A DNA stretch of 63,216 nucleotides, filler included, from Piedraia hortae CBS 480.64 (Eukaryota), in the NCBI GenBank assembly GCA_010093745.1. It is 3 parts of 3 records of this genome, joined end to end, with 100 filler letters (N's around TTAATTAATTAA, not from the genome) between each part and the next. Parts side by side here need not be neighbours in the genome. Positions count along the whole stretch, not along the records: positions 1 to 26,276 come from MU006057.1; 2 more parts are not named here. One strand, given 5' to 3'. Shown in pieces: positions 20,668 through 21,128 of the stretch. The translations under genes and the position numbers were made by a program. Each line of letters begins with the position of its first letter. Positions within the stretch are counted from its first letter, which is position 1. The notes under the pieces were generated by a model. The model made no database searches and was not told the origin of the DNA. It was given only the letters and a program-made list of their open reading frames with translations.

Positions 20668-21128
<461 letters not shown>

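Follow-up and report, generated by a model that had tools for sequence, protein, structure and literature searches.

By reading a 63,216-nucleotide stretch of DNA from Piedraia hortae CBS 480.64 (hereafter the window), we found a histone H3 gene that encodes methionine at residue 29 (A29M; residue numbers exclude the initiator Met), right beside K27 and S28, where nearly all H3 proteins carry alanine. Judged from its sequence, this main H3 with Met29 is a naturally occurring, rare form of a well-studied protein, found in an isolated fungal lineage. On balance, we favour the view that A29M is a real, lineage-specific and tolerated substitution in the main H3 of a Dothideomycete, which tunes K27/S28 signalling and does not abolish it. 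Met29 would then be fixed in the lineage, and the Met29 protein would be its bulk H3.

An intact H3 gene with one internal substitution

The H3 gene of Piedraia hortae is intact, comprises two exons and lies on the minus strand, from 21128 to 20668. Exon 1 (20996..21128), delimited by translation, opens with the start ATG at 21128-21126 and carries codons 1-44 together with the first base of Gly45. Canonical splice signals bound the 50-nt intron (20946..20995), which opens with GTGAGT, closes with CAG and holds a CTAAT sequence resembling a branch site. The second exon (20668..20945), defined by translation and by Pfam, encodes the histone fold and ends with the stop codon TAA at 20670-20668. 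Joining the exons at the intron borders gives a coding sequence of 411 nt, that is 136 amino acids plus the stop. Within exon 1, the minus strand reads in frame AAG TCA ATG CCC TCT, corresponding to K27, S28, M29, P30 and S31, with the ATG of codon 29 at 21039..21041. The first-pass annotation had placed an ATG at this codon (21041-21039), and the per-codon reading of an intact, in-frame gene bears this out. Met29 is the sole internal methionine of the protein. Translation starting at the Met29 AUG was considered and rejected because of the start contexts: the first AUG (ACAATGG) is flanked by A at -3 and by G at +4, the Met29 AUG by T and C at these two positions.

The remainder of the protein is strikingly ordinary. 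First, exon 2 matches the Pfam family PF00125 (E = 3.1e-39, 134 bits for a cut-off of 26.4) and aligns at 100% identity, across 99% of its length, with many fungal H3s, including those of Onygenales, Aspergillus, Botrytis, Alternaria and Golovinomyces. Second, of the 44 residues in exon 1, 43 agree with the solved H3 chain 6gej_A, residue 29 being the only mismatch, and the 43 likewise equal those of fungal H3s, which supports the earlier description of the remaining tail as canonical. Third, the tail is full length, with K4, K9, K14, K18, K23, K27 and K36 in their standard spacing; K27 and S28 are both present, with no loss of either of the kind seen in ARKAAPS-type tails, and R26 and P30 are also kept. 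Compared with complete H3 sequences from Exophiala, Botrytis and Amorphotheca, the Piedraia protein differs only by A29M and by its last residue, which is Gln, while the 120 H3s listed in the core search mostly end with S, A, N or G. No other protein gathered for comparison ends with GERQ.

The gene is arranged head-to-head with an H4 gene, and their start codons are separated by 375 bp (21129..21503), a divergent region whose role as a putative shared promoter is suggested by this arrangement. On the plus strand, translation delimits H4 exon 1 at 21504..21513, followed by an intron at 21514..21565 (GTAAGT ... CAG) and by exon 2 at 21566..21867, stop included, which encodes an ordinary H4. The spliced H4 frame comprises 103 codons plus the stop, aligns over its full length to solved H4 chains, from which a few conservative changes set it apart, and has Pfam hits to the histone fold. 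A divergent H3-H4 locus had been proposed beforehand and is confirmed by these head-to-head genes, the 375 bases between their ATGs and the normal H4. That this is the locus type that usually holds the main H3 of filamentous ascomycetes also stands: the gene is H4-paired with a canonical core, like the single H3 gene described in Neurospora (PMC3248561). As far as its sequence can tell, the gene is thus neither a diverged variant nor a pseudogene, but an ordinary H3 paired with H4, in which a single internal residue is substituted.

The bulk of chromatin might nevertheless be made by a second, canonical H3 gene located elsewhere, in which case the Met29 copy would be minor or specialised. Some Dothideomycetes do carry extra H3 genes with altered tails, such as those of Saxophila tyrrhenica (P0190) and Verruconis gallopava (P0230), and our search for H3 genes covered the 63-kb window, in which no second H3 was found besides this one. 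On the other hand, P0190 and P0230 have rewritten tails together with altered cores, whereas the Met29 gene combines H4 pairing with a consensus core, which is the signature of a main gene, and a single H3 gene has been reported for Neurospora (PMC3248561). We therefore regard a second, bulk H3 gene as unlikely.

P0190, labelled H3.1 in its source and coming from the Capnodiales rock fungus Saxophila tyrrhenica, is peculiar in its own right. Its core is near-canonical, but it carries Met at K9 (IARMSVGG) and Leu-Gly-Leu at positions 27-29 (AARLGLPR). From its sequence, it resembles a natural 'K9M/K27L' histone and could work as an intrinsic inhibitor of K9 methyltransferases.

The codon change and the likelihood of an artefact

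By the genetic code, turning a GCN codon into ATG takes two or three base changes, and the earlier statement that at least two are needed is correct. GCG encodes 3 of the 14 alanine codons of this H3 gene, and the path from GCG to ATG consists of two transitions, via either ACG (Thr) or GTG (Val). Both of these residues occur at position 29 in other H3s. The most likely route to Met29 would thus be from GCG by two transitions, through a Thr or a Val intermediate.

These data also bear on the least probable of the explanations that we considered, namely that Met29 results from an assembly or sequencing error or from a mutation private to the sequenced culture. Met29 is known from one assembly, as assembled sequence alone, and the same tail was found in no relative. 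An error or a private mutation would, however, require at least two adjacent in-frame changes in a non-repetitive region, in a gene that is otherwise flawless. Moreover, no run of Ns comes closer to the H3 gene than the one beginning at 26277, at a distance of over 5 kb. Of the words sampled from the 4 kb around the gene, a fraction of 0.74 occurs in a run that another study made on this organism, a measure made at a scale too coarse to resolve codon 29.

The blocks of Ns in the window are themselves of two kinds. Those at 26277-26376 and 51850-51949 are filler joins of the stretch, each made of two runs of 44 Ns around 12 bases, while a run of 10 Ns at 43384-43393 looks like a scaffolding artefact.

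Met29 is rare among H3 proteins

By searching for the pattern RKS-x-P followed by a TGG motif, we obtained 388 matches in 361 other proteins, in which the variable residue was Ala in 383 cases, Val in two, and Thr, Phe and Met in one each. Among 99 members of ten H3 clusters, all 29 proteins with RKS-x-P had Ala at this position, and neither the Piedraia H3 itself nor any other Met29 protein appeared among the members listed for these clusters (at most 15 per cluster). The tail searches gave no 100% identity among the 120 matches listed, the best one reaching 98% (44/45). Likewise, an ARKSMPS tail was present in none of the representatives listed in the core search or in the tail search, the latter made with residues 6-50 of an 83-aa read-through frame. 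These tail negatives are weak, since the protein database holds one representative per 90% cluster and hides H3 variants that differ by a single residue. Among longer proteins, the list from the tail search was dominated by gene models in which several H3s are fused.

The other Met29 H3, P0302, is a 136-aa protein whose core is of a non-ascomycete kind; it comes from an ENA assembly. At the DNA level, a degenerate pattern for 12 residues spanning ARKSMP was found at a single locus (L001) in JGI metagenome contigs and at none in viral contigs. L001 (218-628, plus strand) is an intronless, GC-rich metagenome H3 with ARKSMPA; its K9 motif also reads ARKSAGG, with Ala for Thr, and Phe replaces Tyr before the first helix (HRFRPG). 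Among the papers listed by our literature searches, none dealt with histone H3 A29M, and the listed titles with text matches to ARKSMP or A29M were unrelated to histones. Altogether, the near-invariance of Ala29 suggests that the position is constrained and that a bulkier residue there may not be harmless.

An isolated lineage of the Dothideomycetes

The window also encodes a CreD-like arrestin protein, whose best relatives are those of Cryoendolithus, Rachicladosporium and Oleoguttula (53%) and of Neohortaea acidophila (49%). Further relatives come from Trypethelium (45%), Cryomyces (40%), Coniosporium and Periconia (39% each) and Diplodia (37%). Every one of these genera is a Dothideomycete, and we take Cryoendolithus and the other closest ones to belong to the Capnodiales in the wide sense. 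On the evidence of this one protein sequence, the arrestin relatives place the fungus in the Dothideomycetes, within the Capnodiales in the wide sense. In a published genome study, the hair fungus Piedraia hortae groups with the acidophiles Acidomyces richmondensis and Hortaea acidophila in one subclade of the Capnodiales, and has a genome of 16.95 Mb with 7,572 genes (PMC7082219).

We then considered how closely related the available sequences are. By exact look-up of ten proteins of the window, we retrieved six in the public collection, five of which were alone in their 90% cluster, including the 2371-aa Prp8, while the sixth shared its cluster only with a 43-aa fragment. These cluster results mean that sequencing has so far reached no close relative, and none of the known ones is near enough to tell whether Met29 is shared or private. 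For a protein as conserved as Prp8, such isolation in its cluster is unusual and, from the sequence, suggests a long, isolated branch.

Several features of the window are worth recording beside these. Prp8 itself, at 9554-16669 on the plus strand, is a single uninterrupted open reading frame of 2371 codons. A NACHT/NPHP3_N NTPase (49226-51265, plus strand) and a Sel1-repeat protein (52656-55064, plus strand) lie close together, and no Pfam match was found for the open reading frames of 451 aa (24412-25767) and 779 aa (57507-59846).

The flanks of K27 vary in other fungal H3s

The residues beside K27 vary more in fungi than the first-pass annotation had assumed, as both S28A and A29P occur in main H3s. 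ARKAAPS (S28A) is found in Aspergillus fumigatus (under the source name "n=173 leotiomyceta"), in Onygenales and in several lichen fungi, and the H3 of fission yeast has ARKAAPA. Blastomyces percursus and the lichen fungi Seirophora/Calogaya have ARKAPPS, which combines S28A with A29P, and the H3 of Blastomyces silverae has ARKGPPS. Proteins with S28A, or with S28A or S28G together with A29P, include P0365, P0149, P0192, P0148, P0458 and P0151. The flanks of K27 therefore vary in fungal main H3s (S28A, A29P, A29M), and mapping this variation against the presence of PRC2 is a tractable comparative question.

Such variation bears on another explanation, in line with the idea of the first-pass annotation that K27/S28 signalling was lost or rewired. 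Here PRC2 would have been lost and K27 would no longer be methylated, residues recognised by the K27 machinery alone would evolve without constraint, and A29M would be one neutral consequence. In line with it, the main H3s of lineages reported to be without PRC2 or H3K27me are changed beside K27, as in A. fumigatus and Onygenales with ARKAAPS and in fission yeast with ARKAAPA: a survey describes core PRC2 as absent from A. fumigatus and Candida albicans, and budding and fission yeast as being without H3K27 methylation (PMC7348808). The A29P changes of Blastomyces percursus, B. silverae and Seirophora/Calogaya, which come with S28A or S28G, fit the same scheme, and Piedraia hortae is possibly gene-poor, its 7,572 genes being the fewest reported for 101 Dothideomycetes (PMC7082219). 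Yet the Piedraia H3 retains K27, S28 and P30, while the PRC2-less lineages compared here changed S28 first. Besides, the Dothideomycetes Zymoseptoria and Dothistroma are cited as models for H3K27me3 (PMC7348808), and Su(z)12-like proteins with VEFS/PHD domains are reported across this class (PMC9018016). We found no paper connecting Piedraia to PRC2 or to histones. Weighing both sides, we consider the loss of PRC2 a rather doubtful, though still serious, explanation of A29M.

In Neurospora, which is reported to have a single H3 gene, alleles of this sole H3 with K27L or S28A were lethal while those with A7M or A15M were viable; A29 is not among the H3 substitutions found in the text of that report (PMC3248561).

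The spacer that follows K27 also shows an oddity in another order. The H3s P0160-P0171 of Pezizales (Terfezia, Tirmania, Kalaharituber, Peziza and unnamed JGI proteins) have a 99%-canonical core with extra or rewritten residues just before TGGVKKP (e.g. KVAHTSN), so the spacer between K27 and K36 differs in that order.

Predicted effects of Met29 on K27 and S28 signalling

Published work bears on the surroundings of residue 29. First, in the cryo-EM structure of PRC2 bound to a nucleosome, A29/P30 of H3 is one of two hydrophobic hotspots and packs against F667, A697, V699, I708 and F724 of EZH2 (PMC7725500; restated in PMC11621828), while R26 and K27 make contacts in the active site of EZH2 (PMC7725500). 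Second, S28 and P30 are called essential for the BAH-domain readers of H3K27me3 (PMC13068663). Third, Aurora kinases are described as preferring the consensus [RK]-[RK]-x-[ST] with a hydrophobic or an aromatic residue next (PMC4607871). Fourth, SETD2 is described as holding the small, uncharged A29-V35 segment in a partly buried state (PMC4973290). No profile of EZH2 peptide specificity for the +2 position was found in the literature.

In the Piedraia H3, the small hydrophobic Ala29 is replaced by the larger, flexible and uncharged Met. We propose that the Met29 side chain would sit in the A29/P30 pocket of the K27 methyltransferase, where K27 methylation may be modestly changed, or where the pocket itself may compensate. 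A hydrophobic Met following S28 would let R26-K27-S28-M29 fit the Aurora consensus better than Ala does. As residue 29 starts the buried segment of small residues held by SETD2-type K36 methyltransferases, K36 methylation could also feel the bulkier Met. Because R26, K27, S28 and P30 are all retained, tuning rather than loss of K27/S28 signalling is to be expected; and Met29 would be tolerated because the position stays uncharged and hydrophobic while these four residues are untouched.

A more elaborate possibility, which we hold to be very unlikely, gives Met29 a function of its own on the only H3 of the fungus, such that all its chromatin would display K27-S28-M29. In one version, the pocket of KMT6 would have co-evolved to accommodate Met, with adapted residues at the equivalents of F667, A697, V699, I708 and F724 of human EZH2, making the fungus a natural experiment on the A29/P30 hotspot. 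In the other version, Met29 would be a redox switch, whose sulfoxide would block methylation of K27 or phosphorylation of S28 and thereby tie facultative heterochromatin to the redox state of the cell.

Whether Met29 tunes K27/S28 signalling, as we favour, or has acquired a dedicated role, its presence on the only H3 would mean that in every nucleosome the K27 methyltransferase pocket receives a bulkier residue, placed right after the mitotic phosphosite S28. It would thus provide a natural test of the A29/P30 contact in Polycomb-type silencing and of the methyl-phospho switch at K27/S28. There is also a practical side to it: antibodies raised against ARKSAP peptides may bind the Met29 tail poorly, which would make negative blots or ChIP in P. 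hortae uninterpretable and call for mass spectrometry.

Comparison with known H3 systems

The closest counterpart of the Piedraia protein is the major H3 of Pezizomycotina, of canonical H3.3-like type, as exemplified by the common leotiomyceta H3 and by the single hH3 of Neurospora crassa, to which it is alike in its 136 amino acids, its tail lysines, its core and its divergent pairing with H4; it differs by Met29 in place of Ala29 and by Gln as the last residue. The environmental ARKSMPA H3s (P0302 and L001) share A29M and likewise keep K27, S28 and P30, but their cores are of non-ascomycete type, for example with VTIMPKD and RRIRGER. Going by these cores, they are probably independent origins of A29M and not relatives of the Piedraia H3.

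The main H3s of the S28A type (Aspergillus, Onygenales and fission yeast) are likewise natural changes adjoining K27. They have lost S28 and kept A29, whereas the Piedraia H3 has kept S28 and changed A29, and the S28A-type lineages are those reported without PRC2 or H3K27me (PMC7348808). The H3s of Blastomyces percursus, B. silverae and Seirophora/Calogaya come nearer to our case in that residue 29 itself is substituted in an otherwise canonical fungal H3; their substitution is to Pro and not to Met, and it always stands alongside a change of S28.

A precedent for a residue a few positions after K27 being decisive comes from plants, where ATXR5/6 discriminate between H3 forms at position 31. 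The distinction made by these enzymes between H3.1 and H3.3 is documented as a case in which such a residue decides the action of a K27 methyltransferase (PMC5499861). As it concerns another residue, another enzyme family and two co-existing variants, the plant case serves the Piedraia H3 only as a precedent.
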